Of a stretch of 64,000 bases of DNA, positions 6,992-64,000 are shown one piece after another. Source of the DNA: Bacteroidota bacterium (GTDB lineage: Bacteria > Bacteroidota > Ignavibacteria > Kryptoniales > JAKASW01); contig JAJZVO010000021.1 in assembly GCA_021845665.1 (NCBI GenBank), forward strand, positions 1,289 to 65,288, given 5' to 3'. The position numbers and the translations under genes are program-made. The notes under the pieces are model-generated. The model was not told the DNA's origin, did no database searches, and saw nothing but the letters and a program-made list of their open reading frames with translations. Positions within the stretch are counted from its first letter, which is position 1; each line of letters starts with the position of its first letter.

Positions 6992-7002
6992 AGCTCACTA
7001 TT

Positions 7003-7845: not shown

Positions 7846-7874
7846 TTGAAAAATTCGTTGTCAGGGCGTATATT
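7846..7874 (+). promoter_or_regulatory. Sigma-70-like promoter candidate for the rimP-nusA-infB operon
   Basis: TTGAAA (7846-7851), a 17-nt spacer, then TATATT (7869-7874), about 55 nt upstream of the rimP ATG. Confidence 0.4.
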
Positions 7875-7890
7875 TTACTTGTCTCGGACG

Positions 7891-7921
7891 AATAGCCCGG
7901 AATTTCTGGGCTATTTTTTTT
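7891..7921 (+). terminator. Intrinsic-terminator-like hairpin in the rimP-nusA leader (possible attenuator)
   Basis: AATAGCCC (7891-7898) pairs with GGGCTATT (7908-7915) around a 9-nt loop. A run of 8 T (7914-7921) follows and ends 7 nt before the rimP ATG at 7929. Confidence 0.55.
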
Positions 7922-7928
7922 AGAAGGA

Positions 7929-8387
7929 ATGGAGAATATAGAAAAAATAGAGAAGCTTCGTCAGTTGCTCGAACCCGTGGCACAAGGGAAGAGCGCCTTT
8001 ATCGTCGACATTACTCTTCGCGGTGAAGGGAGGCACCAGCTTCTCGATCTCTTCTGCGAGACTGACACAGGAATAACGATCAGTCAATGTGCAGAGATAA
8101 GCCGGGAGGTACTACCTTTAATAGAATCGTCAGGCATACTCGGCGAGAGCTTCAGGCTTGACGTATCTTCTCCGGGGGTCGGCACTCCGTTAAGAGACCG
8201 GAGGCAATATAGGAGCAATGTCGGAAGGCTCATGTCCGTCAAGTACAGGGATGGCGAAGAGGTAAAAGAGGCAGAAGGCGATTTGGTGGAATTCACTGAA
8301 GACAGGATATTCTTGAAAACAAGAACGGCTTCGATGGAACTCGGATTCGACTCGATATTAGAAGCGAGAGTTAAAATCAGATGGTGA
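7929..8387 (+). CDS. rimP: Ribosome maturation factor RimP
   Basis: 152 aa, located immediately upstream of nusA. Typical RimP layout, with the DVSSPG block (LDVSSPGVGTPL). Confidence 0.9.
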   Translation: MENIEKIEKLRQLLEPVAQGKSAFIVDITLRGEGRHQLLDLFCETDTGITISQCAEISREVLPLIESSGILGESFRLDVSSPGVGTPLRDRRQYRSNVGRLMSVKYRDGEEVKEAEGDLVEFTEDRIFLKTRTASMELGFDSILEARVKIRW

Positions 8388-8398
8388 TAGGAGGATAA

Positions 8399-9724
8399 AT
8401 GCACGCAGAGAAGAATGAGATAATATCTGCCGCGGCTGAAATTGCCAAAGAGAAGGGAATCGACAAAGAGGTCGTTTCGGAAATACTTGAAGAGGTCTTC
8501 GCCGGAATTGTTAAAAAGACCTATGGCGAGGACGCTGAGACCGACATCGTGACAAATGTCGATCGCGGTGAGATTGAGATCTACGTCATCAAGACGATTG
8601 TAGATCAGGTTGAAAACCCCGGAAAGGAAATCAGCCTTGAAGCTGTCAAGCAATTGGAACCGGACGGCGGCTTTGAGGTCGGCGACCAGTACCCGGAAGA
8701 AGTATCGCCTGAAGAGCTTGGAAGGCGTCAGGTAGTATTCGCGCGACAGACCGGGCTCCAGCGCCTCCATGAGTATGAGAAGAATGTAATATACGACGAA
8801 TACAACAAGATGATTGGCGAGATCGTTGTCGGAGAGATATACCAGGTGAAGCGAGACTTCATTTTAGTCAACCATAATAGGCGCGAGCTTTTTCTTCCTC
8901 GGTCGGAGCAGATTTCAAACGAGCACTATCGCAAGAACTCTACGGTCCGTGCCGTCGTGAAAGAGGTTCGCAAGGGGACGTCGGGTCCGCAGGTTATTAT
9001 ATCGAGAGCCGATCCGATGTTTCTGAAGAAGTTGTTCGAAATGGAGATACCCGAGATTTTCGACGGCGTGGTGGAGATAAAGGCTATCGCGCGCGATCCG
9101 GGAAAAAGAGCAAAAGTTGCGGTTCTGTCGACCGATTCAAGAGTCGACGCGGTTGGAGCGTGCGTTGGGATGAAAGGAGTAAGAATTCACTCCATAGTTC
9201 GCGAGCTTAATAACGAAAATATCGATGTGCTCCTGTACTCCGAAGATCGTCAGATGTTTGTCGAACGCGCGCTCACTCCTGCGAAAGTCACGAAAGTTGA
9301 AGTGGACGTTGAAAATCACAAGGCCCAGGTATGGGTCGACAATAACCAGGAGTCGATCGCGATAGGCAAAGAGGGAATAAACGTCAAGCTAGCTTCACGT
9401 CTTACAGGTTTTGATATTGACCTGATGAGAGAAGGTGCCGCCCCTGAAGCAAAAGGCCAGGGCAAGGAGAAGGCCGAAGCGGAGATGTACGACATCGATC
9501 TGTCTGAGTTCAAGGAAGAACTTGGAGAGGCCTTGCTTGCAAAATTCCTTGATGCCGGTTACCTGACCGCCAGAAATGTCCTTGAGGCCACGGAAGAAGA
9601 GATAAAAATGGATGTGGATATTCCCGAGGAAGAAATTCTGAAGATCTATGAGATGATGCGTAAGGAGCTTGAAGAAGAACCCGAAAACGAACCTACCCAA
9701 GATGCTCTCGGGAAGGAAGAATAG
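8399..9724 (+). CDS. nusA: Transcription termination/antitermination factor NusA
   Basis: GGAGG RBS before the ATG. The order is an N-terminal domain, an S1 domain (GEIVVGEIYQVKRDFILV), then two KH domains (GACVGMKGVRI, AIGKEGINVKLA). Conserved rimP-nusA-infB synteny. Confidence 0.95.
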   Translation: MHAEKNEIISAAAEIAKEKGIDKEVVSEILEEVFAGIVKKTYGEDAETDIVTNVDRGEIEIYVIKTIVDQVENPGKEISLEAVKQLEPDGGFEVGDQYPEEVSPEELGRRQVVFARQTGLQRLHEYEKNVIYDEYNKMIGEIVVGEIYQVKRDFILVNHNRRELFLPRSEQISNEHYRKNSTVRAVVKEVRKGTSGPQVIISRADPMFLKKLFEMEIPEIFDGVVEIKAIARDPGKRAKVAVLSTDSRVDAVGACVGMKGVRIHSIVRELNNENIDVLLYSEDRQMFVERALTPAKVTKVEVDVENHKAQVWVDNNQESIAIGKEGINVKLASRLTGFDIDLMREGAAPEAKGQGKEKAEAEMYDIDLSEFKEELGEALLAKFLDAGYLTARNVLEATEEEIKMDVDIPEEEILKIYEMMRKELEEEPENEPTQDALGKEE

Positions 9725-9749
9725 CTGCTAAAGAAAGGCATTTTTCAGC

Positions 9750-12587
9750 ATGGCTGAAACCACCACGAAGAAAAAACTCGTTACTAAAGTTGCCTCGGAA
9801 TTTCAGGTGTCTGCCGACCAGATTGTGGACTTTCTTAAAACGAAAGGACATGATAAGGTAAAGCGGACTTCGTCTGTCGATGAACAGATGTATGCCGAGC
9901 TGGCCGCTCACTTCAAAAAGGAGCTCGACCAGGTAGAAAAGCGGCAGAAGATCAAAGAACAGCTGACGGATAAGCAGGAAGAAAAAGTAGCGGTCAAAAA
10001 ACTCGTGGATACCGTTACGGTCGAGAGACCTCACATCCCGGATGCAAAACAAGAGCCGCAGGTGGCCCCGAATATATTTGAAGTTGAGCCGGTGAATGTT
10101 AATGCAGTTGAGTCGCAGGCCGAAGCTCCTTCGCCAGTCGTTGAGACGCCGCCGACACAGCCGAACACCGAGATAGAAACCTCAGCTGCGGAATCTCCAC
10201 GCCCTGTCATGGAACAGCCTCCGCTGGTCGTTGAAGAAACGAACGGGGAAGTCTCGGTGCCGTCGCCTGCGTCAGTTCAGGAAACACCTGTCGTCGAACA
10301 GTCTAAACGGCCCGAACACCAACTGATTGAAAATGTCATCCAGGCTCCACCGGCTTCGGCACCCGCAAAGGTTGAAGAACCGCAGCCAGTTATTCCGAAG
10401 AAGGAGGAGAAAGGACTCAAGATCCGCGGGCGGATGGATCTTAGAACGGGGCGTCTGATTACCGAAGAAGAAATGCGCATGAGCAAAGAGCTTGAGGAGG
10501 CCGAGAAGAAGACAAAAGAGGCGGAGAAACTTCTCGAATCGGAATCCCAGTCTCAGAAGAAGAAAAAGAAGAAGAAAAAGAAAATCAGAGAGGCAACTGT
10601 CGTGACCGCTCCGGCGCCTGAGACGGAGACCGAAGAGGATATTAAAAAGCGAAAGAAGAAGAAAGGGAAACACCCTGAAGTTGATCAGGCGGAAGTCGAG
10701 CTCGCTTTCCAGCGCACGATGGCAAGCATAGAGGAGACAGGAGAATCGGATCGCGCCGCAATCCGCAGAAAGAAGCGAAAAGAAAAATTCGAGGCCCAGC
10801 AAATAGAGATCGAGAAGAAAGAGATCGAAAAGCGCCAACTAAAACTGTCGGAGTTCGTTTCTGTGGGAGAGTTGGCAAAACTCATGAACGTCGACGTCGC
10901 CGAATTGATCTCTAAATGCATATCCTTTGGATTGATGGTATCGATTAATCAGCGCCTGGATCTGGAAACCATAACGTTGCTGGCAGACGATTTCGGATAT
11001 GAAGTTGAACTCCAGCAGGAGTACAGTGACGATGCGCTCGAAGACAGGCCGGAGGATCCCGCTACATTGAAGCCGAGACCGCCTGTCGTGACGATAATGG
11101 GGCATGTCGATCACGGAAAGACGTCCCTGCTCGATTTCATAAGACAGACGAACGTTGTCGCGGGAGAGGCCGGTGGTATTACTCAGCATATTGGTGCGTA
11201 CCAGGTAAGACTTTCAAACGGGAAACAGATCACTTTTCTGGATACGCCTGGGCACGAAGCGTTCACTGCCATGCGTGCACGCGGTGCACAGGCAACGGAT
11301 ATCGTGATACTTGTCGTCGCAGCGGACGACAACGTTATGCCTCAGACGATCGAGGCAATCAATCACGCGCGCGCGGCGAATGTTCCACTCATCGTGGCTA
11401 TAAACAAAATCGACAGACCTGAGGCCAATCCCGAAAGGATCAAGAAACAGCTGGCGGATCAAGGCGTGCTCCTCGAAGAATGGGGAGGTAAAACTCAGTC
11501 GGTCGAGATCTCTGCGAAAAAGGGTACTAATGTCGAGATCCTCCTTGAGAAAGTTCTCTTGGAAGCCGAGCTGCTGAATCTGCAGGCAAATCCAGACAGG
11601 CTTGCGAGAGGAGTAGTTATCGAATCGACACTGGACAGGGGACGAGGCGCTGTAGCGACCGTCCTGGTTCAGAAGGGGACATTGAAGGTCGGCGATGCGT
11701 ATGTGGCGGGCACCAGCAACGGAAAGGTCCGTGCTATGACGGACGAACGCGACAACAGGATGGAATCCGCGGGGCCGGCGATGCCGGTCCAGGTGGTCGG
11801 ATTCGACGAACTGCCGCTCGCTGGAGATGTGCTTGTCGCCGTTCCTACTGAGAAGATATCCCGAGACATTAGCAATCGAAGGAAGGTTATCAAACGCGAA
11901 CAGACGATGCGAGGCTCTCAGCACCATGTAACGCTTGAAGAGCTATCGAAGGAAATCAAAGAGGGAATGGTTAAGCAGCTTAGCATTGTCGTCAAAGGAG
12001 ACGTCGACGGTTCGGTCGAGGCTTTGAGCGATGCGTTGGCAAAGCTCTCCAACGAGGAAGTTAGAGTCCAGGTTATTCATAAGGCCGTCGGTGCAATTTC
12101 GGAATCTGACGTGCTCCTTGCTGCCGCCTCGAACGCTATCATCCTGGGATTTCATGTCCGGCCGAGCTCCGCAGCCAGAAAGCTCGCCGAAGCTGAATCG
12201 GTCGATATAAGGCTTTACAGTATTATCTACGATGCTATTGAGAATGTGCGCAAGGGTCTTGAGGGCCTCCTCAGTCCGGAAATCCGCGAAGATGTGGTTG
12301 GATCACTCGAAGTGCGGCAAACATTCAAGGTCCCGAAATTCGGAACTGTCGCCGGATGCTATGTCGTGGACGGCAAGATAACCAGGAATAACCGCGTCAG
12401 GCTCATTCGCGACGGCATAGTCGTTTTTGAAGGTAGCATTGCTTCCTTGCGGCGGTTCAAAGATGATGTTAGGGAAGTCGAAGAAGGTTATGAGTGCGGC
12501 GTCAGCCTAGAAAATTACAACGACATCAAGGTCGGCGATACTATAGAAGCCTTCGTCATAGTGGAGACCCAGCGCACTCTTGCGTGA
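9750..12587 (+). CDS. infB: Translation initiation factor IF-2
   Basis: 945 aa with a low-complexity Lys/Glu/Pro-rich N-terminal region. GTPase motifs are [20 protein letters not shown] and NKID. Confidence 0.97.
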
Positions 12588-13670: not shown

Positions 13671-14608
13671 TCCGATATTCCCTGGACGATATTACTTACG
13701 ATCCGAAATCCATCGTAACCGTCGGCACCTTCGACGGTCTCCATGTTGCTCACCGGAGGATACTCGATACGCTTCAGGAGAAGGCCGGGGCGATCGCGAG
13801 CAGGAGCGTCGTGATAACCTTCAAGCCGCATCCTCAGGAGATTATCGGTAAGAAAAAAATCGAGCTGCTCATGACCGAGGAAGACCGGGTGCGGATGATA
13901 AGTGATGCAGGGATCGACGAGATCTGCGTCATTAAGTTCGACCGCGACTTTTCGCTTGTCACAGCCGAGGATTTTCTCGTGAAGCTCGTTTACGGAAAGA
14001 TCGGCGTGCACGAACTGGTCCTCGGATACAACCACACTTTCGGGCGCGGTGCGCAGGGGACAGTCGAGTTTGCTCGAAAGGTTGGAGAGAAGCTCGGCTT
14101 TGCCGTCGATTATGTCGAGGCCGTGCGGATGGAGGCCGAAATCGTTTCAAGCAGCACGATAAGACGGCTTCTTCACACGGGTAACCTTGCGCTGGCGAAC
14201 GGCATGCTCGGTAGGCCGTACTCGTTTGAAGGATATGTTATTCGTGGTGACGCGCGTGGAAGGGATCTCGGCTTTCCGACGGCTAATCTCAAACTGGCGG
14301 ATGAACGGCTGTTGATCCCTTCGTTCGGCGTTTATGTGGTTGAGGCGATCGTCCAGGGAGAAAAGTTCGCTGGGCTGGCGAGCATCGGTGTAAGACCAAC
14401 TTTCGAGGATGGCGGAACGCCGATGGTGGAGGTCTGGTTGAGCGACTTTGACAGGGACATCTACGGAAAGCGGATGAGAGTGAGTCTCATACACAGATTG
14501 CGGGACGAGATGAAATTTGATTCCGCCGAGCAGCTTATCTTGCAGATGGAGCAGGACAAGCGTGTCATGAGCGAGTTTTTGGTAAAAACAGTAAACAAAC
14601 AAAGATAG
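13667..14608 (+). CDS. ribF: Bifunctional riboflavin kinase / FMN adenylyltransferase
   Basis: ATGA overlap with tru[18 protein letters not shown] marks the adenylyltransferase domain, and GFPTANL with the following C-terminal region marks the riboflavin kinase domain. Confidence 0.93.
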
Positions 14609-14619
14609 GAGTTTTTGGA

Positions 14620-14889
14620 ATGCCTCTGACTAAAGAGCAGAAACAAGAAATCATTAGGAAGTACGGCAAATCCGGCAGTGACTCGGGCAGCACGGAAGTG
14701 CAGGTCGCCATACTGACAGAGAGAATAAACGAACTTGCTTCCCACTTTGAAACTCACAAAGGGGATCACCACTCACGGAGCGGGCTACTTAAGATGGTCG
14801 GGAAACGCCGCCGGCTTCTAGAATACCTGCAGTCTGAAGACATCGAGCGATATCGCAAAATCGTAGAGGAACTCCATCTCAGAAAGTAA
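14620..14889 (+). CDS. rpsO: 30S ribosomal protein S15
   Basis: 89 aa: [43 protein letters not shown]...[22 protein letters not shown]. Confidence 0.97.
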
Positions 14890-14907
14890 AACAAGAAGGA
14901 TACATAA

Positions 14908-17073
14908 ATGGAAGGTTTCATAACCAAAGAAATAGACATAGGCGGCAGAAAATTATCACTGGAGACTGGTAAACTTGCTAAGCAGGCCAGTGGTGCAGTG
15001 ATGGTCCGTTATGCCGATACGCTCGTCCTTGCAACGGTCGTGGCTGCTGAAGAAAAGAAGGAAGGGATTGATTTTCTTCCACTATCAGTCGAATACCGTG
15101 AAAGGACATCCGCCGCTGGTAAGATCCCGGGCGGATTCATAAAAAGGGAAGGCCGACCCAACGAGAAGGAGATCCTTTCCGCCCGCCTTATCGACAGGCC
15201 GATTCGCCCGCTCATCCCGAAGAAATGGAGCTATGAGACTCAGATTGTCACGACGGTCTTTTCTTTCGACGGAGAGAACGACCCGGATGTACTCGGGGCC
15301 ATCGGAGCATCGGCCGCACTGGCTGTCTCCGACATACCGTTCGACGGACCAATCGCGGAGGTTAGGGTCGGGAGAATTGAAGGCCAGTATATCCTCAATC
15401 CGCTGGTCTCCCGACTTCAAAACAGCGACATGGACCTGACAGTTGCCGGCACAGAAGATTCGATCGTGATGGTCGAGGGCGAATCCCACGAAGCATCGGA
15501 ATCGGAACTGCTCGGCGCACTCGAGTTCGCTCACAAGTACATCAGGGAGATCGTGGCGCTCCAGAAGGAATTCGCCGCTCTGGTCAACAAGCCGAAGAGA
15601 GAGGTACCGGAGGACGCCGTTGACGCGGCGCTGGTTTCCGAGATTAAGTCGCTCGCTTTCGACAGGATTCACGAGTTGAACAGGATGGTCGTGAAGAAGG
15701 CCGAGCGGAGCGAGAAGACTAAGAAGATAAAGGAAGACGTGTTGGCGGCGCTCGCGGAAAAATATCCGGAGCAGGAAGGGAAGATTGCAGAGATCCTTCA
15801 CGACATCGACCGCGACGACATGCGCCAGATGATTTTGAAGGAGGGTCGCAGGCTTGACGGACGGGGCTACAAAGATGTCCGGCCCATCACCTGCGAAGTG
15901 GGCATTCTTCCGAGGACACATGGCTCGTCGCTCTTCACACGCGGCGAGACACAGAGTCTCACGTCGGTCACACTCGGCACCAAGCTTGACGAGCAGATGA
16001 TCGACGGATTGCTGCCGGAATCTACAAAGAGGTTCATGCTTCATTACAATTTTCCCGGCTACAGCGTCGGTGAGGTATCGAGAATCGGAAGCCCGGGTCG
16101 GAGGGAGATCGGACACGGAAACCTTGCAGAGAGGGCATTGAAGAATCTTGTCCCCGGCGAAAAAGAATTCCCGTACACTGTCAGGATCGTCTCGGATATT
16201 CTCGAATCAAACGGCTCCTCATCTATGGCGACGGTCTGTGCAGGATCACTCGCTCTCATGGATGCCGGTGTACCTCTCGCGAAGCCCGTGGCCGGAATAG
16301 CTATGGGACTCATCAAGGAAGATGATGAAGTCTCTGTTATCACCGATATACTCGGCAACGAGGATCATCTCGGAGATATGGACTTCAAAGTCGCAGGAAC
16401 GAGGGACGGCATAACGGCTTTCCAGATGGATATCAAGATACGCGGTATTTCATTCGAGATTTTGGAACGCGCTCTTGCTCAGGCAAAGGAAGGACGACAT
16501 CATATCCTCGGAATCATGGAAGGGACGATCGCCGAACCGCGAAAGGAGCTTTCGCAATTCGCTCCAAGAATGACGTCGATGAAGATACCTGTCGATATGA
16601 TCGGAGCCGTTATCGGACCCGGCGGCAAGGTGATAAAAAACATCGTCCAGCAGACGGGAGCTGAAGTTAACATCGAGGATGACGGCTCCGTCGTCATCGC
16701 TGCGGTTTCCGCTGAATCCAGCGACAAGGCGCGCGAAATGATAGAACGCCTGGTCGAGCTTCCGGAAGTCGGAAAGGTATACAAGGGCACAGTGAAGCGA
16801 CTTATGGACTTCGGTGCTTTCGTCGAGTTTCTCCCCGGTAAAGAAGGGCTCCTCCACATTTCTCAGATCGACCACAGGCGAGTCAACAAGGTTGAGGATG
16901 TATTCAAACTTGGCGACGAGGTGGAAGTAAAGCTGATGGAGATTGACGATATGGGACGATACAACCTGAGCAGAAAGGTCCTGATTGAGAATCCGAACCC
17001 CGATGCGCTGAATGAAGAACATCATTCCGATCATCGTCCCTCCGACAGACAAAGAAGAGGCCCGCGCCGTTAA
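14908..17073 (+). CDS. pnp: Polyribonucleotide nucleotidyltransferase (PNPase)
   Basis: 721 aa with two RNase PH domains, a KH domain (IGAVIGPGGKVIKNI) and an S1 domain (GKVYKGTVKRLMDFGAFVEF). Conserved rpsO-pnp synteny. Confidence 0.97.
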   Translation: MEGFITKEIDIGGRKLSLETGKLAKQASGAVMVRYADTLVLATVVAAEEKKEGIDFLPLSVEYRERTSAAGKIPGGFIKREGRPNEKEILSARLIDRPIRPLIPKKWSYETQIVTTVFSFDGENDPDVLGAIGASAALAVSDIPFDGPIAEVRVGRIEGQYILNPLVSRLQNSDMDLTVAGTEDSIVMVEGESHEASESELLGALEFAHKYIREIVALQKEFAALVNKPKREVPEDAVDAALVSEIKSLAFDRIHELNRMVVKKAERSEKTKKIKEDVLAALAEKYPEQEGKIAEILHDIDRDDMRQMILKEGRRLDGRGYKDVRPITCEVGILPRTHGSSLFTRGETQSLTSVTLGTKLDEQMIDGLLPESTKRFMLHYNFPGYSVGEVSRIGSPGRREIGHGNLAERALKNLVPGEKEFPYTVRIVSDILESNGSSSMATVCAGSLALMDAGVPLAKPVAGIAMGLIKEDDEVSVITDILGNEDHLGDMDFKVAGTRDGITAFQMDIKIRGISFEILERALAQAKEGRHHILGIMEGTIAEPRKELSQFAPRMTSMKIPVDMIGAVIGPGGKVIKNIVQQTGAEVNIEDDGSVVIAAVSAESSDKAREMIERLVELPEVGKVYKGTVKRLMDFGAFVEFLPGKEGLLHISQIDHRRVNKVEDVFKLGDEVEVKLMEIDDMGRYNLSRKVLIENPNPDALNEEHHSDHRPSDRQRRGPRR

Positions 17074-39661: not shown

Positions 39662-41755
39662 ATGAAAAAGGGAGTGACGTACGCCATATTCGTGGCGCTT
39701 CTCCTTACCATGGCCGGATGTTCAAAATACAAAGTGGCGTCTTTCGTGATGCCGACCTGGAATATGCAGCTTTCCGCACCGATTTTCGACCGGACGTATA
39801 CACTTTTGCAGATGATTTCAAAGGATACGGTTCAGGTCTCAAATGGTGATACCACTTTCTTACTTCCAAATTCGCAGACCCAGGTTTTCACGCTTATTCG
39901 ATCTCAGAACTTGAACGGGGTGTCTGTTGGGAACAATCTGAAGATTGGCGCCGTGCCTCAGACAAACGTTGCCCAGAGCCCGAAAGATTTTTCGATCGCC
40001 AATCCTCCGTCCATCCACTATTCGGCGGTGAACCCGTCAATCGTGACCGGTTCGGTTCCGTTTGTCCCTGCGATTCCCAAGCAGACCCAAACGATTACCC
40101 CGGCGGACGCATTCACGAACTTCAAGACTGCTACACTTAGCACCGGAACATTGACGATTACGATTCACAACGGATATCCCGCTCCTATCATCTTTGAGAA
40201 CGGGCTCATCTACTTGGTCGATGCCTTTGGAGGATACATACACATATCTGTCCCGAAGGATTCTATACTGGGAAACCAGACAGTCACCCTTCCGGCTGTT
40301 TCTCTGGCGGGCCGTACTCTTTCTGATCAGCCTACTGTTACATTTACTGATAGCTCCAATGGGTCATCGTCGGCTGCGACGATACAATCCGATACTACTA
40401 TATCATTTTCCGCTTCTTTGGCGAATGTCCATGTGTCGTCTGCAAACGCCATAGTACCTCCACAGCCTGATATTGTCATCGACTCCAGCATCGTAATACA
40501 GGATGGCAACAAAGTTCAGACCGCATCCATCGACACCGGAAGCGTCAGTCTGACGGTAAGAAACAATTATAACATAAGCATTCCGGTCAGTCTCAGCATC
40601 CCGGGACTTACCAAAAGCGGAGTATCTCTGACACGGAACTTCACGTTGTCTCCGAAGGGGACGTCGGGGAGTGTATACGCTACTCCGATTTCTCTCAACG
40701 GCTACACTTTAAACATGGCCGACCCTTCGACGGGAGCACCTTCAGATTCTCTGAAATACAGTGTCACCGCACAGATACCTGGGTCAAATGGGAGTTACGT
40801 TGGTATCTCAACTACCGATTCCATCACCGCTTCGTTCCAGCTGACCGGGCTTCAACTTTCGTCTTTCTCCGGCGAGGTACATCTCGCGAATGCTATCAAT
40901 ATCGCTCCCGACACTCAGAAGGTGGATCTGGGGTCGTTTGCATCGAAGTTCAACGGTGCGATCCTCTTCGGACCTGGAACAACACTACAGATGAGAATTA
41001 ACAGCATAGGCTTCCCATGTGAGGCGCACATCTCGCTAATACCTACGAGTAGCGAATACCTTTCGCTTCCCCCGGTGGATTCAGCCGTCGTGGACACAAC
41101 TATCTATCCCAACCGCACTAACGTGATAACGCTTGGTCAGAGTTTCGTTAAAGCTCTTAATGCATTCTCCGAAGCTCACAGGACTATTCCCGACAGGTTC
41201 ATAATCAGCGGATACGTGCTTGTGAACCCGGGAGGTACCGCAATAGGATCGGTTAAGAGCACAGACATGGTCACGGGGAGCGGAACTATAACGATGCCGT
41301 TAGATCTCGGAATCATTAACGCTCAGTACGCTGATACAACCAAGACTGCCGTCATAACCGATTCCAGTACATCCGCGAAGCTCGCCAATGTCGATAGCGG
41401 TAACGTCGTCATTGAAGTATGGAACGGTCTGCCTCTGCAGGTTACCATGATGGGCCAGCTGATCGACACGACCACTCACGCCGTCCTCATGAATTTTCCG
41501 AGTGACAGCATCTACATCCCGGCGGCTCAGATCAACCCGGACGGGAGTGTAAAGGACTCGGTGTTCAGCAAGAACATAGTTTCGCTGACGGCGACGCAGG
41601 CAAGGAATCTCGGGAACAGTTACATGAGATTCTTCTTCAGAGTTGTGACGCCACCCGGGGCGACCACCGTCCCGTTCATGAAGGATAACGATATTTCCTT
41701 GAGGGTTTACGGCAATTTTGCCCTTAAGGTTGACAAAAGTCTGACCGGAAAGTGA
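39662..41755 (+). CDS. Large lipoprotein of unknown function (repeated beta-sandwich-like modules)
   Basis: GAAGGAG RBS and a lipobox LLLTMAGC. Ser/Thr/Asn-rich. A strand pattern recurs: TLTITIHNGYPAPIIF, VSLTVRNNYNISIPVSL, VVIEVWNGLPLQVTM. Confidence 0.6.
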   Translation: MKKGVTYAIFVALLLTMAGCSKYKVASFVMPTWNMQLSAPIFDRTYTLLQMISKDTVQVSNGDTTFLLPNSQTQVFTLIRSQNLNGVSVGNNLKIGAVPQTNVAQSPKDFSIANPPSIHYSAVNPSIVTGSVPFVPAIPKQTQTITPADAFTNFKTATLSTGTLTITIHNGYPAPIIFENGLIYLVDAFGGYIHISVPKDSILGNQTVTLPAVSLAGRTLSDQPTVTFTDSSNGSSSAATIQSDTTISFSASLANVHVSSANAIVPPQPDIVIDSSIVIQDGNKVQTASIDTGSVSLTVRNNYNISIPVSLSIPGLTKSGVSLTRNFTLSPKGTSGSVYATPISLNGYTLNMADPSTGAPSDSLKYSVTAQIPGSNGSYVGISTTDSITASFQLTGLQLSSFSGEVHLANAINIAPDTQKVDLGSFASKFNGAILFGPGTTLQMRINSIGFPCEAHISLIPTSSEYLSLPPVDSAVVDTTIYPNRTNVITLGQSFVKALNAFSEAHRTIPDRFIISGYVLVNPGGTAIGSVKSTDMVTGSGTITMPLDLGIINAQYADTTKTAVITDSSTSAKLANVDSGNVVIEVWNGLPLQVTMMGQLIDTTTHAVLMNFPSDSIYIPAAQINPDGSVKDSVFSKNIVSLTATQARNLGNSYMRFFFRVVTPPGATTVPFMKDNDISLRVYGNFALKVDKSLTGK

Positions 41756-41766
41756 GGAGAGGGAAA

Positions 41767-43230
41767 ATGAAGAGAATATTAGTCCTTGCAGCCCTTTTCC
41801 TCGCTCCGTTGTTCAGCGTTCGCGCGCAACAGATCGCAAGCAGCAGGCTGATCTCGATGGGCGGAGTCTCCACGGCAGTATCATCCAACGTAGATGCCAT
41901 AGGTACGAATCCCGCGAATTTGATCGCGACTTCTCGCGGCAATGTCGTCGTTGAACTGGCGCCGATCAGTCTGAGGGCAGGAACAGATTTTTTGAGCCTG
42001 AACCTGTACAACAACTACTTTACCGGCACCGGTCAGGTGGACAGCGCCGGGAACAAGATCGGGAAGTACCTCACAGCCGCGGATAAGCAGAGCATACTCG
42101 ATGCATTCCCCGGTGGCATAGGGACGGTGCTGACCGACGTCAGCATCCGTGATTTAGGCCTTTCGGTTAGGAATAACGATTTCGCCCTCGGTTTTGCCAT
42201 CGACGATCACGTCGGTGCCCGCGCTACTGTGCCGAACTCTTTCGTGATGTTTGCTCTTGACGGGAATGCTCCGGGATCGAACTTCTCGTGGGACAACATC
42301 AGCTCGAAGGCGTGGTGGTACAGGAGCTACAACGCCGATTTTGCGATTAGACTGCCCAATCCAGTTATAATTCCGAAAGATATCGCAAACGGTTTCAGCG
42401 CGGGCATCGGGGTCAAATACGTCACCGGCCTTGCTTATGCTTCGGCGCAGACGAACAACAGTTATCTGCAGACCGACTCCGCAAACTATGCTTTCAACGT
42501 AGGCTTAGGATTCAGCGGACAGCGCGCCGGCATATTGAGCAACGCGATTTCGAAGGCGATGAAGAGCAGCGTCGGCGATACCACGACGAACGTGAATCCG
42601 TTCTCTCCCGCAGGTTCGGGATTCGGTTTCGATCTCGGAGGGACGGCAAGAGTTCTCGGCTTCATCAAGGTCGGCATGAGCTTGACTGACATCGGAGCTA
42701 TTTCGTGGACGAAGAACACTATCAGCACGTCCGGAGATACATCTTTCACGTTCAATGGATTTTCACCGGCCGAAACCGGCGTCCCGAACGCGACGAGTAA
42801 CCTCGACAGCCTGAACAATGCTTTCAAGAATTTCTTCAAGAACAGGGATTCATTGTCATCGGGCTTCACTACACCGCTCCCGACCAGGTTTAACCTGGGT
42901 GCGTCAGTGAACATGGATGAGGTGTTCCCCTCGATTCCGGGCCAACTCCTTCTCGCAGTTGACTATCACCAGGGACTCAACAATTCTCTCGGTAATTCCA
43001 CGGTTCCTGAAATCGACCTCGGGGCGGAGTGGAAGCCCATAGGTGTGCTTCCGATAAGGACGGGCCTTGGATTTGGAGGTGCGTATGGTTTCAGATGGGC
43101 ATTGGGCATCGGCATCGACATGCCATTTTGGGATATCGATCTTGGCGTCGGAACATTCAACGATTTGGTTGCGCCAACCAGTGCCAAGAACCTGTCTGTG
43201 ACGTTAAGTTTTCTCAAGTTCAGATTCTGA
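41767..43230 (+). CDS. Outer-membrane beta-barrel protein (PorV/PorQ/DUF5723-like N-terminal motif)
   Basis: Start at ATG 41767, giving the signal peptide MKRILVLAALFLAPLFSVRAQQ. The motif MGGVSTAVSSNVDAIGTNPANL, alternating beta-strand patterns and a C-terminal ...LSFLKFRF ending in Phe are all typical of OMPs. Confidence 0.6.
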   Translation: MKRILVLAALFLAPLFSVRAQQIASSRLISMGGVSTAVSSNVDAIGTNPANLIATSRGNVVVELAPISLRAGTDFLSLNLYNNYFTGTGQVDSAGNKIGKYLTAADKQSILDAFPGGIGTVLTDVSIRDLGLSVRNNDFALGFAIDDHVGARATVPNSFVMFALDGNAPGSNFSWDNISSKAWWYRSYNADFAIRLPNPVIIPKDIANGFSAGIGVKYVTGLAYASAQTNNSYLQTDSANYAFNVGLGFSGQRAGILSNAISKAMKSSVGDTTTNVNPFSPAGSGFGFDLGGTARVLGFIKVGMSLTDIGAISWTKNTISTSGDTSFTFNGFSPAETGVPNATSNLDSLNNAFKNFFKNRDSLSSGFTTPLPTRFNLGASVNMDEVFPSIPGQLLLAVDYHQGLNNSLGNSTVPEIDLGAEWKPIGVLPIRTGLGFGGAYGFRWALGIGIDMPFWDIDLGVGTFNDLVAPTSAKNLSVTLSFLKFRF

Positions 43231-57774: not shown

Positions 57775-58050
57775 ATGAGAAAATTGCCGGGTGTAGTCCT
57801 GAGCCTCATTGTAACGTCCATTTTGCTTGCTGGATGTACTAAATATGCGGATCAGAGTCAAATGCAGCAACTATCGGATCTGAAGAACGAAATAGCGACA
57901 TTGCAGCAGCAGATACAGACCGCTGATCAGCAGAAGGCTGATTTGCAGAAACAAGTTGCAGACAAGAAGGACCAAATCAAGAAACTTGAGAACGACGAGC
58001 AACTTCTCCAGCAGAGGCTGCAGTCGCAACAGAATTCTAATTCAAACTGA
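57775..58050 (+). CDS. Small coiled-coil lipoprotein
   Basis: AAAGGAGG RBS and a lipobox ILLAGC. The rest is Gln/Lys/Leu-rich heptad-like sequence. 91 aa. Confidence 0.65.
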   Translation: MRKLPGVVLSLIVTSILLAGCTKYADQSQMQQLSDLKNEIATLQQQIQTADQQKADLQKQVADKKDQIKKLENDEQLLQQRLQSQQNSNSN

Positions 58051-58063
58051 CAAGGAGCCATAG

Positions 58064-58831
58064 ATGAAACGTATATCCGTATTGGCAGTGGTCGCGATGA
58101 TGTTCGCGATTTCCTCTGTGGCTTCCGCACAGCAGGAAAAGATGAAGTACGCAGATTGGCAGGCCGAGATGACGTCATTGACCGCCAAGCGCGACTCTTT
58201 GAAAAACGTGCTGAGTCAACTTAATACTGACATAGCTAATCTGAAGAGCGAACTCGCCAGCCTCGATGGACAGTACCAGGCGCAGTGGAAGAAGTATCTC
58301 GGAATGCTTGGAACAGATGAGGCGGGTTATAAGGCTTTTGGGCTCGCCCTCCAGAACATGAAGTCCCAGATTGACAACTACATGTCGATGTCGGATCAGG
58401 ACCTCTGCGCTCAACGTAAAAATGTCGAGGCGCTCGGAGCCAGGATCGATTCGATGAAGACCAGCAAACTGGCGCTCGCACAGCAATACTATAATGAGGT
58501 CCAGACTCTGGTTAACGATTATGCTCAGTTAAAGGCCCGTCTTGCCAATTGCTCTACGGCAATGACTTATACGGTCGGTACTTGGGCTCGTAACAGAGAC
58601 TGTCTCTGGAACATTGCGAAGAAATCCTCGATTTACAACGATCCCTGGAGATGGCCTAAGATCTACATGGCCAACAGGAATCAGATCAGGAATCCTGATT
58701 TGATCTATCCGAAGGAAGTGCTGAAGATCCCGGCAAATGCTCCTCTTACGAATAGTGAGAGAGCCGCCGCGCGCGCCTATTATGCAAGAAAGGCCCGTAT
58801 GGAAAGAATGTCGGCACATCCCTCGAAGTAA
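58064..58831 (+). CDS. Secreted coiled-coil protein with a C-terminal LysM domain
   Basis: Signal peptide MKRISVLAVVAMMFAISSVASA. The C-terminal YTVGTWARNRDCLWNIAKK...IRNPDLIYPKEVLKIP is a LysM motif. Confidence 0.8.
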   Translation: MKRISVLAVVAMMFAISSVASAQQEKMKYADWQAEMTSLTAKRDSLKNVLSQLNTDIANLKSELASLDGQYQAQWKKYLGMLGTDEAGYKAFGLALQNMKSQIDNYMSMSDQDLCAQRKNVEALGARIDSMKTSKLALAQQYYNEVQTLVNDYAQLKARLANCSTAMTYTVGTWARNRDCLWNIAKKSSIYNDPWRWPKIYMANRNQIRNPDLIYPKEVLKIPANAPLTNSERAAARAYYARKARMERMSAHPSK

Positions 58832-59934: not shown

Positions 59935-60177
59935 AACCAATGGCTAAATTGCGGGGGGTGGTCTGCAAAGCGGGCTTGCACATACATGCTGTCAATATTT
60001 GTGTCTGCTCCTGCGTGTGTAAACTTGGTCGCGGGCAATTCACTTGCATCCCTCTTCACGTCAGAAAATTTGTCAATCCGGAAAATTCCTCTTCGTCTCA
60101 GGTCTGCATATTATCCGGGTATTCGACAGATATCTCGATATAAATTCACCTACTAATCCCATGGGCAAGGCCTCGAA

Positions 60178-63100
60178 ATGATAAAAAGGTTAGCGGCAAC
60201 TATAGTTATGCTCTATTCCCTTAATGCTTTCGCGGGGAATCGAGTGCTGATAGTGTACGAAGGCAAAGATGTGCAGAGTAACCCTGCGAAAGGCGATGCT
60301 CTGCAGTTGTACCAGCTCCTCGGCCATTTCGATCTGCGTAAAAAGGTCGTCGCGGCCGACGATTACCGTCCGGGGGAATGCAACGGATTCGATTATGTTT
60401 TCTTCAACGGGTTTACTCCAAACTGCCAGCCGCCGGACAAGTTTCTCGATGATGCTTTCGAATACAAAGGAACACTTGTCTGGTTAAATACAGGAATAAT
60501 TGCTTTCAACGCGCGCCACAATCTGGAAAAAAAATACGGGTTTGTTCCCGAGAGGTATGATTCTACACTAGGGTTCGACGCGGTGGTACCGACGGACAGG
60601 GATTTCAGGTTTGACAAGGGCGACAATTATCTGACCGTGATGACAATTACCAACAGTACAATGGTTAAGGTCCTTGCAAACGCCTATGCGCCTCATCATA
60701 TCGTATCGCCGTACGCCATTCATTCCGGCAACCTTTATCTATTCGGCGACTCGCCCTTTTCTTATATTGGCCCGACGGACCGGTACATTTTCTTTGCCGA
60801 GAAGCTGCACGATATCCTTCACCAGGAGCACCCCGAATTTCATTCTGCAATGATTCGTATTGAAGATGTCGACCCGACCGAGGATCCGAACAGCATCAGG
60901 AAGATCACGGACCTTCTTTACAGCGAGCATGTTCCGTTCCTCATAGCCGTTGTCCCCTTTTACGTCGACCCGGCAAACAACGTTCGTATCTCACTTTCCG
61001 ACAAGCCCGATATGGTGGACGCTCTCCGCTATGCCGAGGACCATGGCGCGACGATCGTCATGCATGGAGTCACTCATCAGTATCACGGAGTAACCGATGA
61101 CGATTATGAGTTCTGGGACAGTGCGTTGAACAGACCGATAGCGAACGACAACGCGGCATATGTTAAACAGAAGCTCGAGACCGGAGTGGAAGAGCTGATG
61201 CGCAACGGTGTTTACCCGCTCGCGTGGGAGACGCCTCATTATGGCGCATCCGACCTCGACTACGCTACGATCGCGAAAGTATTTTCGACAGCAGTCGAAG
61301 AACGCACCGTTATGAACGATCTCGATTACAGTCAGTACTTCCCTTATGTCATTCGGAAAGATATGTTCGGCGAAAGGATCGTTCCTGAAAACACAGGTTA
61401 CGTCCCGTACGGTTCGCCCCAGGAAGAGGAGAAGGGGGTTCAGGATATCCTCGCTGCGGCTAAAGCAAATCTGTACGTGAGAGACGGCTATGCGACGGCT
61501 TTCTTCCATCCGTTCATGCCGATCCATCTTCTCAGGGAGATTGTTGAGGGAACGAAAGCGCTCGGCTACACTTATGTGAGCCTGCGCGATAGCAGCAATA
61601 TGGTACGGCTCCCCGACAGGGTGATCCTGTCAGGTGCCGACTCGTTCAAGATTTCGATCGAAGACGAATATCTCAAACAAATCTATTTGAATGAGAAAGG
61701 AGAGCGGGCTCGAAGAGAAATAACTTCGAAGAGGGTTACCGAGACATTCAAGAAACAGGTCGAACTCAAGCCGGGTTGGATTTATGCTGCCGAACCTATC
61801 GAGTACAGGGAAAGGGCTCTGACTATTTGGGACAAAGCGCTGATCGGAATCAAGAGTGTCTGGAGCAGGTTCTTTCCGGAGAAGAAAAAGATAACTCCCG
61901 CAGTCGCAGGTATTCTCTGGGATTCGACGGCTACGGGGGGGGCAAAGCTGGACGAGGCCAGTTTCGCAACAGCACTCGGGAGCGTCGGGATACCCACCGA
62001 TACTCTCGCTCCGGGCGACCTTGACAGTCTGAATCCATATAACCTGATTATCGTCCCGTACACCGTCGCGGATAACCTGCCTGATTCCCTCTATGAAGTT
62101 CTCGAGAAGTTTGTCTCTTCCGGCGGAAGACTTATCACCGATTCGAAGAACCCGCTCGCAGTCGACTTTGGTGTGAAGTTCAGCCAGAATGTCATGCGGC
62201 TCGAGAAGGTGAGAGACCGCATGTTTCCTGAACAGCTCCTAAGCTGGGGGAATTTTGAAACAGTCCATCGGATCGATGTCGAGGAAAATGATCAGATAAT
62301 TTGCACAAACGATCTAAACGACGCGCCAGTGGCCGTCGCTAGAAAGTACGGTAAGGGGAAAATAATCGTAATGAGCGCCCGATTCGATCCGGTGACTGGC
62401 GGAGGCTATGCAAGGTTCCCGTACCTGATAGAGTGGATCAAGAAATATTTTCAGCTTTATCCGACTTTAAGACGTGACAAGCTGGATATGTTCTTCGATC
62501 CGGGACTTAGGTCCACGTCGCACATAAGCATAGAGTCTCTGGTAAAAGACTGGGCGGCGAAAGGTATCAGTGTCATCCAGGTCGCCGGATGGCACGAATA
62601 CCCGAAATACACATACGATTACGACAGGCTGATCAGGCTTTGCCACGCTTACGGGATCGCCGTGTACGCGTGGATCGAACCGCCGCAGATAAGCAAGATG
62701 TTCTACGATGAGCATCCGCAATGGCACGAGAAGAACTACAAAGGAGAGGATGTCCGTCCCGACTGGCGTTACCCGGTGGCGCTTGCGGACAGCGCGTGCA
62801 TGCGTGCGGCCTCCGGCTGGACTTATAATTTCCTCACTTCTCACGATTGGGACGGAGTGAACATATCTGAGCTCTATTTCGGCGGCGAAGGTGCACCGGC
62901 AGATCCGAGAATGCTTACACCGTTCGACATGAGTGTGCGTGTCATGTTCAGGAAGGAATATGGTTTCGACCCCGTCCGGCTCTTCCAGCAGAACTCTCCG
63001 CACTATTACAAGACATCGCCCCAGGACTGGAAGAGCTTCGTGGACTTCCGCGCCTCGCTTGTGACCAGACTGACTTCACATTTCATAGATATTGCCCGGG

Positions 63101-64000
63101 ACGCTTTTAGCGGCAAACCCGGTGCCCAGATCATACTTACTGTGATGGATCAGAAAACATTTCCCGGGCTCAGAACTTCGCTCGGGGTGGATATGAACCA
63201 GATCCTTCAGCTCAGGAAGACTTACCCGTTTATCCTCAACGTCGAGGACCCTGCCGTAAGCTGGAACTCCGATCCGAGGCGCTATGTCGCGATCGGAAAC
63301 ACATACAAGAAGTTGTTGGGTCCCGATTCTACTGACCTGATGATCGACCTGAATATCCTGGAATTCCGTCATTCTAACTACAACGGTGTGTTTCCAACAA
63401 AGATGCCGACCGGAATCGAAAGCTACCTGCTCGTAAACTCGGCCTCACAGGTTGCGCCACGGGTGGCGATCTACTCCGAAGCGACGGCACTCCCACAGGA
63501 TATTGCCGATTTCCCGTATGCGGCAACCCCACAGGCGAACTTCCAGGCTTCCGACGGCGGCTTCACAGTAAATGCTCCCTATTCAACCTGCATGAGGCTC
63601 AGCAATGATGTCGCTGAAGTATCGGTAGACGGCAGGGTTGTATATCCATATCAGCCTGGCTGCTTCTCAATCCCGGCGGGAAACCATTTCGTCAGGATTG
63701 TGAAGGCCGATGTCAACCCGTTTGAGAGCGGATTGATGCATTCGCATGTAGAGTCCGCTTCCTGCAACATCCTTAGTGAGAAGACATTTCAACGCGGAGT
63801 GGAGTTCACTTACTCTTCGCTGGGAAGATGCGCGGTATCGTTCGGAAAATTGCCGTATGCGGTTGTTGTGGACAACCACGAAATACCGTTTACCGTGGCA
63901 CGGGAGGAACAACATTACGGCATAGTTCTCCCGCCTGGCCGGCACAAGGTCCTTGTCGTGCTGGAGAGCACGGTCTCTTACGGGATCGACATGACGAGTC
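60178..64000 (+). CDS. Very large secreted multidomain protein, 3' end outside the window: signal peptide + unknown domain + DUF2334/deacetylase-like domain + GATase-like domain + glycoside-hydrolase-like TIM-barrel domain
   Basis: This ORF is not in the supplied track, presumably because it has no stop inside the window. My own translation from ATG 60178 runs 1274 codons to nt 64000 without a stop. The N-terminus is MIKRLAATIVMLYSLNAFAGN. Deacetylase-like blocks are MIRIEDVDPTEDP, PFLIAVVPFYVD, IVMHGVTHQY and AWETPHYGAS. Later blocks WHEYPKYTYDYDRLIRLCHAYGIAVYAWIEPPQ and HDWDGVNISELYFGG resemble GHL-type TIM barrels. Only short minus-strand shadow ORFs lie opposite. Confidence 0.85.
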   Translation, partial: MIKRLAATIVMLYSLNAFAGNRVLIVYEGKDVQSNPAKGDALQLYQLLGHFDLRKKVVAADDYRPGECNGFDYVFFNGFTPNCQPPDKFLDDAFEYKGTLVWLNTGIIAFNARHNLEKKYGFVPERYDSTLGFDAVVPTDRDFRFDKGDNYLTVMTITNSTMVKVLANAYAPHHIVSPYAIHSGNLYLFGDSPFSYIGPTDRYIFFAEKLHDILHQEHPEFHSAMIRIEDVDPTEDPNSIRKITDLLYSEHVPFLIAVVPFYVDPANNVRISLSDKPDMVDALRYAEDHGATIVMHGVTHQYHGVTDDDYEFWDSALNRPIANDNAAYVKQKLETGVEELMRNGVYPLAWETPHYGASDLDYATIAKVFSTAVEERTVMNDLDYSQYFPYVIRKDMFGERIVPENTGYVPYGSPQEEEKGVQDILAAAKANLYVRDGYATAFFHPFMPIHLLREIVEGTKALGYTYVSLRDSSNMVRLPDRVILSGADSFKISIEDEYLKQIYLNEKGERARREITSKRVTETFKKQVELKPGWIYAAEPIEYRERALTIWDKALIGIKSVWSRFFPEKKKITPAVAGILWDSTATGGAKLDEASFATALGSVGIPTDTLAPGDLDSLNPYNLIIVPYTVADNLPDSLYEVLEKFVSSGGRLITDSKNPLAVDFGVKFSQNVMRLEKVRDRMFPEQLLSWGNFETVHRIDVEENDQIICTNDLNDAPVAVARKYGKGKIIVMSARFDPVTGGGYARFPYLIEWIKKYFQLYPTLRRDKLDMFFDPGLRSTSHISIESLVKDWAAKGISVIQVAGWHEYPKYTYDYDRLIRLCHAYGIAVYAWIEPPQISKMFYDEHPQWHEKNYKGEDVRPDWRYPVALADSACMRAASGWTYNFLTSHDWDGVNISELYFGGEGAPADPRMLTPFDMSVRVMFRKEYGFDPVRLFQQNSPHYYKTSPQDWKSFVDFRASLVTRLTSHFIDIARDAFSGKPGAQIILTVMDQKTFPGLRTSLGVDMNQILQLRKTYPFILNVEDPAVSWNSDPRRYVAIGNTYKKLLGPDSTDLMIDLNILEFRHSNYNGVFPTKMPTGIESYLLVNSASQVAPRVAIYSEATALPQDIADFPYAATPQANFQASDGGFTVNAPYSTCMRLSNDVAEVSVDGRVVYPYQPGCFSIPAGNHFVRIVKADVNPFESGLMHSHVESASCNILSEKTFQRGVEFTYSSLGRCAVSFGKLPYAVVVDNHEIPFTVAREEQHYGIVLPPGRHKVLVVLESTVSYGIDMTS

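Follow-up and report, generated by a model that had tools for sequence, protein, structure and literature searches.

A giant membrane-anchored protein with DUF2334 and TIM-barrel domains is encoded beside a family 2 glycosyltransferase in an Ignavibacteria lineage

Results

The giant open reading frame and its full length

A stretch of 64,000 nucleotides (hereafter, the window) from contig JAJZVO010000021.1 of a bacterium of the class Ignavibacteria (Bacteroidota) was analysed, with the focus on a giant protein whose gene starts at position 60178 of the plus strand and runs off the right edge. The window is ordinary chromosome, with genes for IF-2, PNPase, DnaG, GlnD, a hybrid histidine kinase, UvrD, ArgH, ArgG and PhoH. 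Translation of the plus strand from the ATG at 60178 gave 1274 stop-free codons to position 63999, with base 64000 opening codon 1275, and the chance of so long an open run was estimated at about 1e-27 from the stop-codon frequency at about 51% GC. A preliminary description of this DNA had stated that the frame was open to the window edge, that it was the largest of the window and that it was missing from the accompanying list of open reading frames, probably for want of a stop inside the window. All three statements held: re-translation found no in-frame stop, the runners-up encoded 1085 and 1083 residues, and frames running off an end go unlisted. The 1274-codon translation contained the motifs RIEDVDP, VVPFYVD, MHGVTHQY, ETPHYG and ILWDSTATGG, together with AYGIAVYAWIEPPQ and WDGVNISELYFGG.

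The public contig L001 encodes a near-identical protein, P0001, of 1309 residues, with three differences over the 1274 residues (V920A, N1007S and A1167V), and the neighbourhood of the giant past the window was read from this contig. L001 filled in the final 35 residues, which form a hydrophobic helix and an RRR tail (...LWSSALIAIFGSVAGGILILLYFVFKFRRRTIAHV). A hydropathy scan of the whole 1309-residue protein revealed a single transmembrane-like segment at residues 1280-1298, followed by RRR, and the N-terminal sequence reads as a signal peptide that contains no lipobox cysteine. Because of this combination, the giant is predicted to be a type-I membrane protein whose ectodomain, about 1255 residues long, lies in the periplasm and is anchored by a single C-terminal helix. 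The protein had been described as secreted with a signal peptide; the signal peptide was recognised, but the C-terminal helix would tether the protein and argues against free secretion. The features of the coding sequence are as follows (GATase1, class I glutamine amidotransferase; pLDDT, predicted local distance difference test; HMM, hidden Markov model):

60178..63999 (+), partial coding sequence, codons 1-1274 of 1309, of the giant, a putative extracytoplasmic enzyme (open frame; near-identical P0001 on L001)
60178..60234 (+), Sec-type signal peptide, residues 1-19, MIKRLAATIVMLYSLNAFA before G (read from sequence; model helix 2-17, pLDDT <50 at 16-18)
60235..60822 (+), N-terminal flavodoxin/GATase1/ThuA-like domain, residues ~20-215 (AlphaFold pLDDT 91; Foldseek matches to PabA (8rp0), PhzE and the ThuA-like 4pxy and 4e5v)
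60847..61551 (+), DUF2334, a CE4-fold putative de-N-acetylase, residues 224-458 (Pfam PF10096, E=2.4e-49; Foldseek CE4 matches)
61597..61800 (+), beta-sandwich, residues ~474-541 (model secondary structure; the 'bsand' HMM recurs in fused homologs)
61825..61872 (+), amphipathic linker helix LTIWDKALIGIKSVWS, residues 550-565 (model secondary structure)
61891..62451 (+), second GATase1-like domain, resembling the GH42 trimerisation domain, residues ~572-758 (Glyco_hydro_42M 18 bits, below the cut-off; 5xb7 profile match; model pLDDT 90)
62482..63522 (+), (beta/alpha)8 TIM barrel of the GHL6/GHL10/PgaB-C type, residues ~769-1115 (Foldseek; weak GHL6 match; conservation)
63538..63963 (+), two C-terminal beta-sandwiches, residues ~1121-1262 (model secondary structure; the 'Cbeta' HMM recurs in fused and stand-alone homologs)

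Domain anatomy and structure models

The giant thus consists of a signal peptide, a flavodoxin/GATase1-like domain, DUF2334, a beta-sandwich, a second GATase1-like domain, a TIM barrel, two further beta-sandwiches and the membrane anchor, in this order. Two AlphaFold models were built from 50-sequence alignments, one of residues 1-570 (pLDDT 91) and one of residues 561-1274 (pLDDT 90, predicted template-modelling score (pTM) 0.92), and the Pfam searches together with these models recovered both the deacetylase-fold and the TIM-barrel domain. No NCBIfam model matched the giant. An N-terminal domain of about 180 residues had been noted earlier as present and could not be placed; Foldseek now placed it as a second flavodoxin/GATase1/ThuA-like fold, and a domain of this kind also occurs in stand-alone YdaL-like proteins of Firmicutes. 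The following segment, which had been assigned from short motifs to the DUF2334/CE4 superfamily, matched PF10096 (DUF2334; COG 'YdaL') with 168.1 bits against a cut-off of 26 over profile positions 2-202 of 203. Moreover, Foldseek matched this region with probability 1.0 to the CE4 deacetylases SpPgdA, PdaC, BC1960 and the Vibrio cholerae chitin deacetylase (CDA), in agreement with that assignment.

For the middle domain, the proposed class-I glutamine amidotransferase or beta-galactosidase-trimerisation fold was upheld by the sub-threshold Glyco_hydro_42M match, by a weak match of the family profile, searched against the PDB, to the GH42 trimerisation domain (5xb7 residues 434-502) and by precomputed PF08532 matches in many homologs. 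The two GATase1-like domains showed no mutual sequence similarity in an internal-duplication comparison. The last segment, which had been described as a TIM barrel resembling glycoside hydrolases, is indeed a TIM barrel in the model, with fold matches to the C-terminal domain of PgaB, to Cwp19 and to GH42 enzymes. With template-modelling (TM) scores normalised to target length, the barrel matched residues 310-672 of Escherichia coli PgaB (4p7q/4p7o/4p7n) at TM 0.65-0.67 (E~5e-9, root-mean-square deviation ~5 A, ~390 columns), Bordetella BpsB (6au1) at TM 0.65 and Clostridioides difficile Cwp19 (5oq3) at TM 0.59-0.61, and GH42 enzymes superposed on the barrel together with the GATase-like domain. 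The PgaB C-terminal domain, Cwp19 and GH42 are among the best compact barrel matches and have similar scores, with no match to PgaB at the sequence level. Some fused and many stand-alone homologs carry precomputed PF14871/PF02638 matches (GHL6/GHL10 annotation). As judged from the models, the two C-terminal beta-sandwiches are possibly carbohydrate-binding.

The partner GT2 gene

In L001, a gene for a 434-residue glycosyltransferase of family 2 (GT2) lies directly downstream of the giant, and its ATG overlaps the stop codon of the giant by 8 nt. The GT2 protein contains the motifs DAD (VYDADN), TED (AITEDSE) and QRTRW and four hydrophobic segments, one N-terminal and three C-terminal; it matched the GT2 families of Pfam as well as the chains and cores of BcsA and hyaluronan synthase. 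By these features, the partner is a processive membrane GT2 synthase. Its best NCBIfam model was PgaC_IcaA (TIGR03937; E=1e-50), with 172.6 bits against an equivalog cut-off of 422.3, which was not reached.

The pairing was examined in a survey in which one genome per GTDB species was scanned with a nine-sequence alignment and the 80 returned loci were scored with alignment-derived domain HMMs. Twelve of these 80, L001, L002 and three further look-ups gave 17 fused loci from several lineages of metagenome-assembled genomes, and GT2 was directly downstream of the giant in 17/17, often with overlapping stop and start codons. The synteny was retained in relatives at 81% (L002), 78% and 71% identity; in a 58% relative with another neighbourhood, the giant-GT2 pair alone was retained.

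In the preliminary description, it was suggested that the giant may mark the start of an exopolysaccharide or biofilm-matrix locus lying just beyond the window. The gene of a processive GT2 synthase is indeed the next one, but the locus beyond the window is this one gene, because unrelated convergent genes for Fur, DUF3501, CCG and rubrerythrin follow. Among glycosyltransferase and export genes sought downstream, the GT2 gene was found, but no outer-membrane exporter was present in the operon of this lineage. Epimerase, GT2, BcsB-like and beta-propeller partners were not found in the 64-kb window, and no transporter, SusC/D or sugar-catabolism gene adjoined the pair in the window, L001, L002 and the relatives.

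In the 78% relative (L088), a third gene overlaps the GT2 stop (14155-15414, +). Its 419-residue product begins with a signal peptide, ends in Phe and gave a marginal SlipAM match (22.8 bits against a cut-off of 22). From its sequence, the product is probably a beta-barrel of the outer membrane, and it is a candidate for the absent exporter. A distant homolog of this gene lies near the pair in L073 (7146-8450, -), and the window's own lineage has no gene of this type.

Collinearity with a split locus of Clostridia

A clostridial locus, L005, carries in order the genes for a GH8 protein (385 residues), a GGDEF protein with several hydrophobic N-terminal segments (289), a YdaL-like protein composed of the N-terminal domain and DUF2334 with a C-terminal transmembrane segment (557), a GT2 (418), a BcsB-like protein (711; Pfam E=1e-49) and a protein consisting of the GATase-like, TIM-barrel and beta-sandwich module (846; hereafter, the C-module). 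Residues 22-502 of the giant aligned to the product of the third gene (28% identity, E=2e-61) and residues 593-1258 to that of the sixth (28%, E=1e-87). The GT2 of the window's lineage was 48% identical to the L005 GT2. Because its two halves align to the third and sixth genes, with which it is collinear, the window protein is a fusion of a YdaL-type protein with the sixth-gene module. The transmembrane segment of the L005 YdaL-like protein (residues 524-542 of 557) is at the position equivalent to helix 550-565 of the giant; since stand-alone YdaL-like proteins carry a C-terminal membrane helix at that place, the amphipathic helix that joins the two halves may be a relic of the fusion.

The third to fifth genes of L005 are similar in size to YdaL, YdaM and YdaN, of 569, 420 and 703 residues. 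The first five genes match the Bacillus subtilis operon ydaJKLMN in order and in gene kinds, namely a hydrolase, a degenerate-GGDEF receptor, YdaL, YdaM and YdaN, of which ydaLMN are required for exopolysaccharide in B. subtilis (PMC13274460, PMC5422440). Listeria pssA-E likewise contains genes of these kinds, in which PssC is the GT2, PssD the BcsB orthologue and PssE the GGDEF receptor (PMC4125290), and PssB is listed as the Pss deacetylase (PMC6307706). The cited papers do not report the C-module in the described Bacillus (yda) or Listeria (pss) operons.

The occurrence of stand-alone homologs of about 700-740 residues first suggested that the C-terminal ~700 residues of the giant corresponded to YdaN. 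This assignment was rejected, because the YdaN position in L005 is occupied by the BcsB-like protein (711 residues), the C-module is an extra sixth gene and the giant is unlike the BcsB-like protein (no similarity; hhalign probability 0.3%).

Conserved putative catalytic residues

Conservation was assessed over 50 homologs, down to about 42% identity. In DUF2334, E229-D230, H296, H300, W350-E-T-P-H-Y355, R435-D436 and H444 were invariant. The barrel retained D892, E898 (just after beta4), E1023-D1024 (end of beta6), D1057 (within beta7) and E1101 (just after beta8) in all of them. A D...H-x3-H spacing is the pattern of the CE4 metal triad, and E229-D230, H296-x3-H300 and H444 would fit it by pattern and by modelled fold. 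An acidic residue follows beta4 in PgaB (D466) and in Cwp19 (Asp196; PMC5765458), and by its place in the modelled barrel E898 may be its counterpart.

Clues to the polymer

GT2 enzymes invert configuration, and a beta-linked chain is therefore expected from the partner synthase. The deacetylase-fold domain implies N-acetylated sugars. In addition, a gene for UDP-GlcNAc 2-epimerase, the enzyme that makes UDP-ManNAc, adjoins the pair in 8/14 fused loci; three of these calls were scanned by Pfam (E 1e-112 to 1e-121) and the remainder came from clustering. This is a hint, by analogy with Listeria Pss, that the polymer could be of the ManNAc type. ManNAc is taken as a lead and not as a conclusion, because no epimerase gene lies near the pair in the clade of the window, and PNAG-like (poly-N-acetylglucosamine) or chitin-like products are possible.

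Discussion

In this study, a giant membrane-anchored protein was found to be encoded in tight association with a GT2 gene. Synthase-dependent exopolysaccharides, such as cellulose, PNAG, Pel, alginate and Listeria Pss, form biofilm matrices, and the periplasmic deacetylase/hydrolase enzymes of these systems, PgaB and PelA among them, are key to the mechanism and also serve as anti-biofilm tools. We consider it likely that the giant is the modifying or processing partner of the translationally coupled GT2 and that it arose by fusion of ydaJKLMN/pss-type components; its enzyme activities, the polymer and physical contact with the synthase are what we infer from the domain folds, the anchor, the invariant residues, the GT2 pairing and the collinearity with the split locus. 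The earlier proposal that a deacetylase and a hydrolase-like domain are fused here in the manner of exopolysaccharide-modifying enzymes is supported by the folds and by the adjacent GT2. Most probably, the giant represents a compact, uncharacterised form of the known machinery for biofilm polysaccharides, nearest to Yda/Pss by gene content and nearest to PgaB by fold logic.

Under this proposal, the GT2 would build a beta-linked chain from a nucleotide-activated N-acetylhexosamine (GlcNAc and/or ManNAc) and thread this chain across the inner membrane, with the giant held beside the synthase by its C-terminal helix. The CE4-fold DUF2334 domain would strip some of the N-acetyl groups. The PgaB-C/GHL-type barrel and its flanking beta-sandwiches would bind the chain and trim or release it, as PgaB and PelA do in their own systems, and the two GATase1-like domains may serve as scaffolds or oligomerisation modules. 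As to its origin, a YdaL-type protein with the N-terminal domain and DUF2334 would have been joined to the C-module of Firmicute ydaJKLMN/pss-type loci.

Several observations weigh against this proposal. The Pfam matches of the second half, Glyco_hydro_42M at residues 598-654 and GHL6 at 807-858, were both below threshold, with a GHL6 score of 16.7 bits against a gathering cut-off of 35. For the giant, no PF01522 (Polysacc_deac_1) match appeared at E<=1, and PDB searches with the single sequence and with the family profile did not find a solved CE4 or PgaB chain, so that the catalytic-residue equivalences derive from pattern and fold. Furthermore, about 60 of the 80 surveyed loci (L003-L082), mostly from Acidobacteriota (Bryobacteraceae, Terriglobia), carry the C-module but lack DUF2334 and GT2 genes within 10 kb of it, and because of these copies it appears that the module can work outside the partnership. 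The operon of this lineage (L001 and relatives) contains no outer-membrane export component, c-di-GMP receptor or epimerase. B. subtilis YdaL and Listeria PssB themselves are linked to the giant through the name given by JGI, the Pfam family and the order of genes in L005. To our knowledge, DUF2334 proteins and the members of the fused family are all biochemically uncharacterised.

Compared with the Yda/Pss systems, the giant has an N-terminal half collinear with the YdaL-type protein of L005, fused proteins are called 'YdaL' by JGI, and a YdaL-type protein is encoded beside a PssC/YdaM-type GT2 in each of the 17 fused loci. The epimerase of related fused loci fits the ManNAc backbone of Listeria Pss, whose polymer is a beta-1,4-ManNAc chain with alpha-1,6-Gal (PMC13492145). 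There are also differences. Genes of the BcsB-like (PssD; YdaN position), degenerate-GGDEF (PssE, YdaK) and GH8 (PssZ, YdaJ) kinds do not lie beside the pair in L001, L002, L087 and L088; in the window, no BcsB-like gene was found, and the surveyed open reading frames contained no GGDEF or GH8 domain. The module of about 700 residues is fused in the giant and a separate sixth gene in L005. Moreover, the host of the window encodes outer-membrane-type proteins and is probably diderm, unlike the Firmicutes with Yda/Pss.

The logic of PgaB/BpsB, the bifunctional PNAG deacetylase and GH153 hydrolase, is shared by the giant: a periplasmic CE4-fold deacetylase is followed by a TIM barrel, and a PgaC-type GT2 is the partner. 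In line with the earlier remark that domain order and size differ from those of PgaB and PelA, the giant is about twice as large as PgaB and has two extra GATase1-like domains and three beta-sandwiches. Besides, the giant contains DUF2334 and not the Polysacc_deac_1 family, it has a C-terminal transmembrane anchor whereas PgaB has an N-terminal lipid anchor, and sequence similarity between the two was undetected with the single sequence and the family profile. No PgaA or PgaD partner lies by the giant, and its signal peptide lacks the lipobox cysteine of the lipoprotein encoded within pgaABCD. Cwp19 and the GHL10/GHL6 proteins share the barrel fold (5oq3) and the acidic residue after beta4 (PMC5765458); however, Cwp19 is an S-layer-anchored peptidoglycan hydrolase with no GATase-like domain and no deacetylase partner, and the giant is below threshold for the GHL Pfam families. 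GH42 beta-galactosidases likewise combine a TIM barrel with a GATase1-like 'trimerisation' domain, but in the giant the order is reversed (GATase-like domain, then barrel), the GH42 catalytic domain gave no Pfam match, and the context is biosynthetic and membrane-tethered.

A bolder extension of the proposal can be put forward tentatively. The pair may be a self-contained, two-protein exopolysaccharide machine of diderm bacteria, in which the giant would combine chain guidance (the role of BcsB), de-N-acetylation and trimming, tasks that are divided over several subunits in Yda/Pss, Pga and Bcs systems. The polymer made would be a beta-linked, partly deacetylated chain of ManNAc/GlcNAc that is so far undescribed outside Firmicutes, and DUF2334 and the GHL6-like barrel would found new families of carbohydrate esterases and glycoside hydrolases.

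Among the alternatives, a strict PNAG (poly-beta-1,6-GlcNAc) system, with the giant as a long-form equivalent of PgaB/IcaB, the GT2 as the PgaC/IcaA orthologue and partially deacetylated PNAG as the product, is improbable. PgaC_IcaA as the best NCBIfam model of the GT2 (E=1e-50) speaks for it, as do the rank of the PgaB C-terminal domain among the best compact barrel matches and the deacetylase-plus-barrel logic. However, the GT2 scored 172.6 bits against an equivalog cut-off of 422 and shares 48% identity with its counterpart in a yda/pss-type locus. The locus lacks any PgaA- or PgaD-like gene, DUF2334 takes the place of the Pfam CE4 family found in PgaB/IcaB, a lipobox is missing from the signal peptide, and the epimerase genes in related loci point to UDP-ManNAc.

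Still less probable is that one or both 'enzyme' domains are non-catalytic and that the giant is mainly a periplasmic scaffold or chaperone, BcsB-like, which guides the nascent chain through binding grooves. Invariance of the CE4-like metal-triad pattern and of the carboxylates at the strand ends of the barrel, down to about 42% identity, is difficult to reconcile with such a role, and the giant has no similarity to the L005 BcsB-like protein (hhalign 0.3%). Copies of the barrel module that stand alone are secreted and have no synthase gene in their vicinity, which is what would be expected of enzymes. On the other hand, the single-helix C-terminal anchor resembles that of BcsB; flavodoxin-like and beta-sandwich domains are the domain classes of BcsB; the fused loci have no BcsB-like gene and the split locus L005 has one; and CE4 pseudoenzymes exist, with BA3943 among the fold matches.

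A catabolic, surface-tethered enzyme for environmental N-acetylated glycans, with a coincidentally adjacent GT2, would agree with the GH42, GH36 and GH66 families among the fold relatives and with the frequency of stand-alone C-modules in soil Acidobacteriota, but it is highly implausible given the GT2 directly downstream in 17/17 fused loci, often with overlapping stop and start, the lack of adjacent transporter, SusC/D or sugar-catabolism genes and the presence of the same parts within the yda/pss-type biosynthetic operon of L005.

A modifying or processing partner of the GT2, as preferred here, offers a tractable two-gene system for learning what DUF2334 (YdaL-type) proteins do. It would also connect the poorly understood yda systems of Bacillus and pss systems of Listeria to environmental diderm lineages and supply candidates for new CAZy esterase and hydrolase families. 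The family is real, widespread and uncharacterised, and the value of these findings is incremental, because no concept is overturned.

Wider family and other features

In environmental metagenome-assembled genomes, the full-length protein has over 700 relatives of about 1300 residues, counted as protein clusters at 90% identity. These genomes are labelled Ignavibacteria, Bacteroidota, Acidobacteriota, Thermoanaerobaculaceae or Ca. Acidiferrales, and the only names of the proteins are 'DUF2334 domain-containing' or 'YdaL' (JGI). An exhaustive search with the C-terminal half alone gave 544 representatives (one per 50%-identity cluster), among them many stand-alone secreted proteins of about 650-850 residues and some giants of about 1650-1700 residues. 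In the surveyed loci, the stand-alone C-modules have about 650-760 residues and are secreted, and the Firmicute copies add a C-terminal 'stalk' domain resembling copper amine oxidase. One locus of Thermoanaerobaculales, L017, has a fused giant (5633-9817, -) with its GT2 and a divergent second, stand-alone C-module (10001-12010, +).

Larger fused genes of about 1650-1706 residues (L031, L034, L035, L037, L045, L063 and L081) usually have an additional TIM (GHL-like) domain at the N-terminus. On contigs that are long enough, their operons include a repeat protein of about 290 residues with no Pfam match (five loci) and an FG-GAP/PQQ beta-propeller of about 620-780 residues (six loci), and most include a UDP-GlcNAc 2-epimerase. 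The propeller that was scanned (L063) has a sorting tail of the type IX secretion system. Genes for a hybrid histidine kinase, a CHASE8 histidine kinase and a YfiR/HmsC-like periplasmic protein adjoin the larger operons in L081 (17456-21437, -) and also in L031 and L035. As YfiR and HmsC regulate c-di-GMP-controlled biofilm polysaccharides, these genes may provide regulatory input.

A search with the yda-type GT2 of Paenibacillus found GT2s of Bacillaceae, 58% identical, in L083 and L084 (Parageobacillus thermoglucosidasius and Bacillus cytotoxicus). In both, DUF2334, BcsB-like and C-module genes are missing from the surroundings; a UDP-glucose dehydrogenase gene is found close to one of these GT2 genes, and the other is isolated. 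With such different contexts, this GT2 clade serves more than one kind of system. The Paenibacillus C-module as query returned no protein of B. subtilis, and tblastn against plasmids returned only isolated DUF2334 genes, in B. thuringiensis and in an unannotated Bacillus record.

Two features precede the coding sequence of the giant:

59935..60177 (+), intergenic region of 243 nt after phoH, the presumed carrier of the promoter
60161..60181 (+), six-codon (21-nt) upstream open reading frame overlapping the start codon, present in the window and in L001

A sigma-70 scan upstream of the start gave no convincing plus-strand site, and the identity of the intergenic region to that of L002 is confined to a few short patches. 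The six-codon frame is present as it had been described, but it is not conserved: its ATG is TTG in L002, and nothing comparable was seen in L087, L088, L089, L079, L044 and L026. It is probably fortuitous and was rejected as a regulatory element.

Two small coiled-coil proteins of 91 and 255 residues, the second with a weak LysM match, are encoded before phoH (57775-58050 and 58064-58831, +), and these two genes and phoH are syntenic with the giant in L002, L087 and L088. Elsewhere in the window, an open reading frame of 697 residues with no Pfam match (39662-41755, +) overlaps the start of a DUF5723 gene of 492 residues (41752-43230, +). The second-largest frame of the window (3734-6991, +) encodes 1085 residues with DUF5107 (E=8e-115) and TPR repeats.

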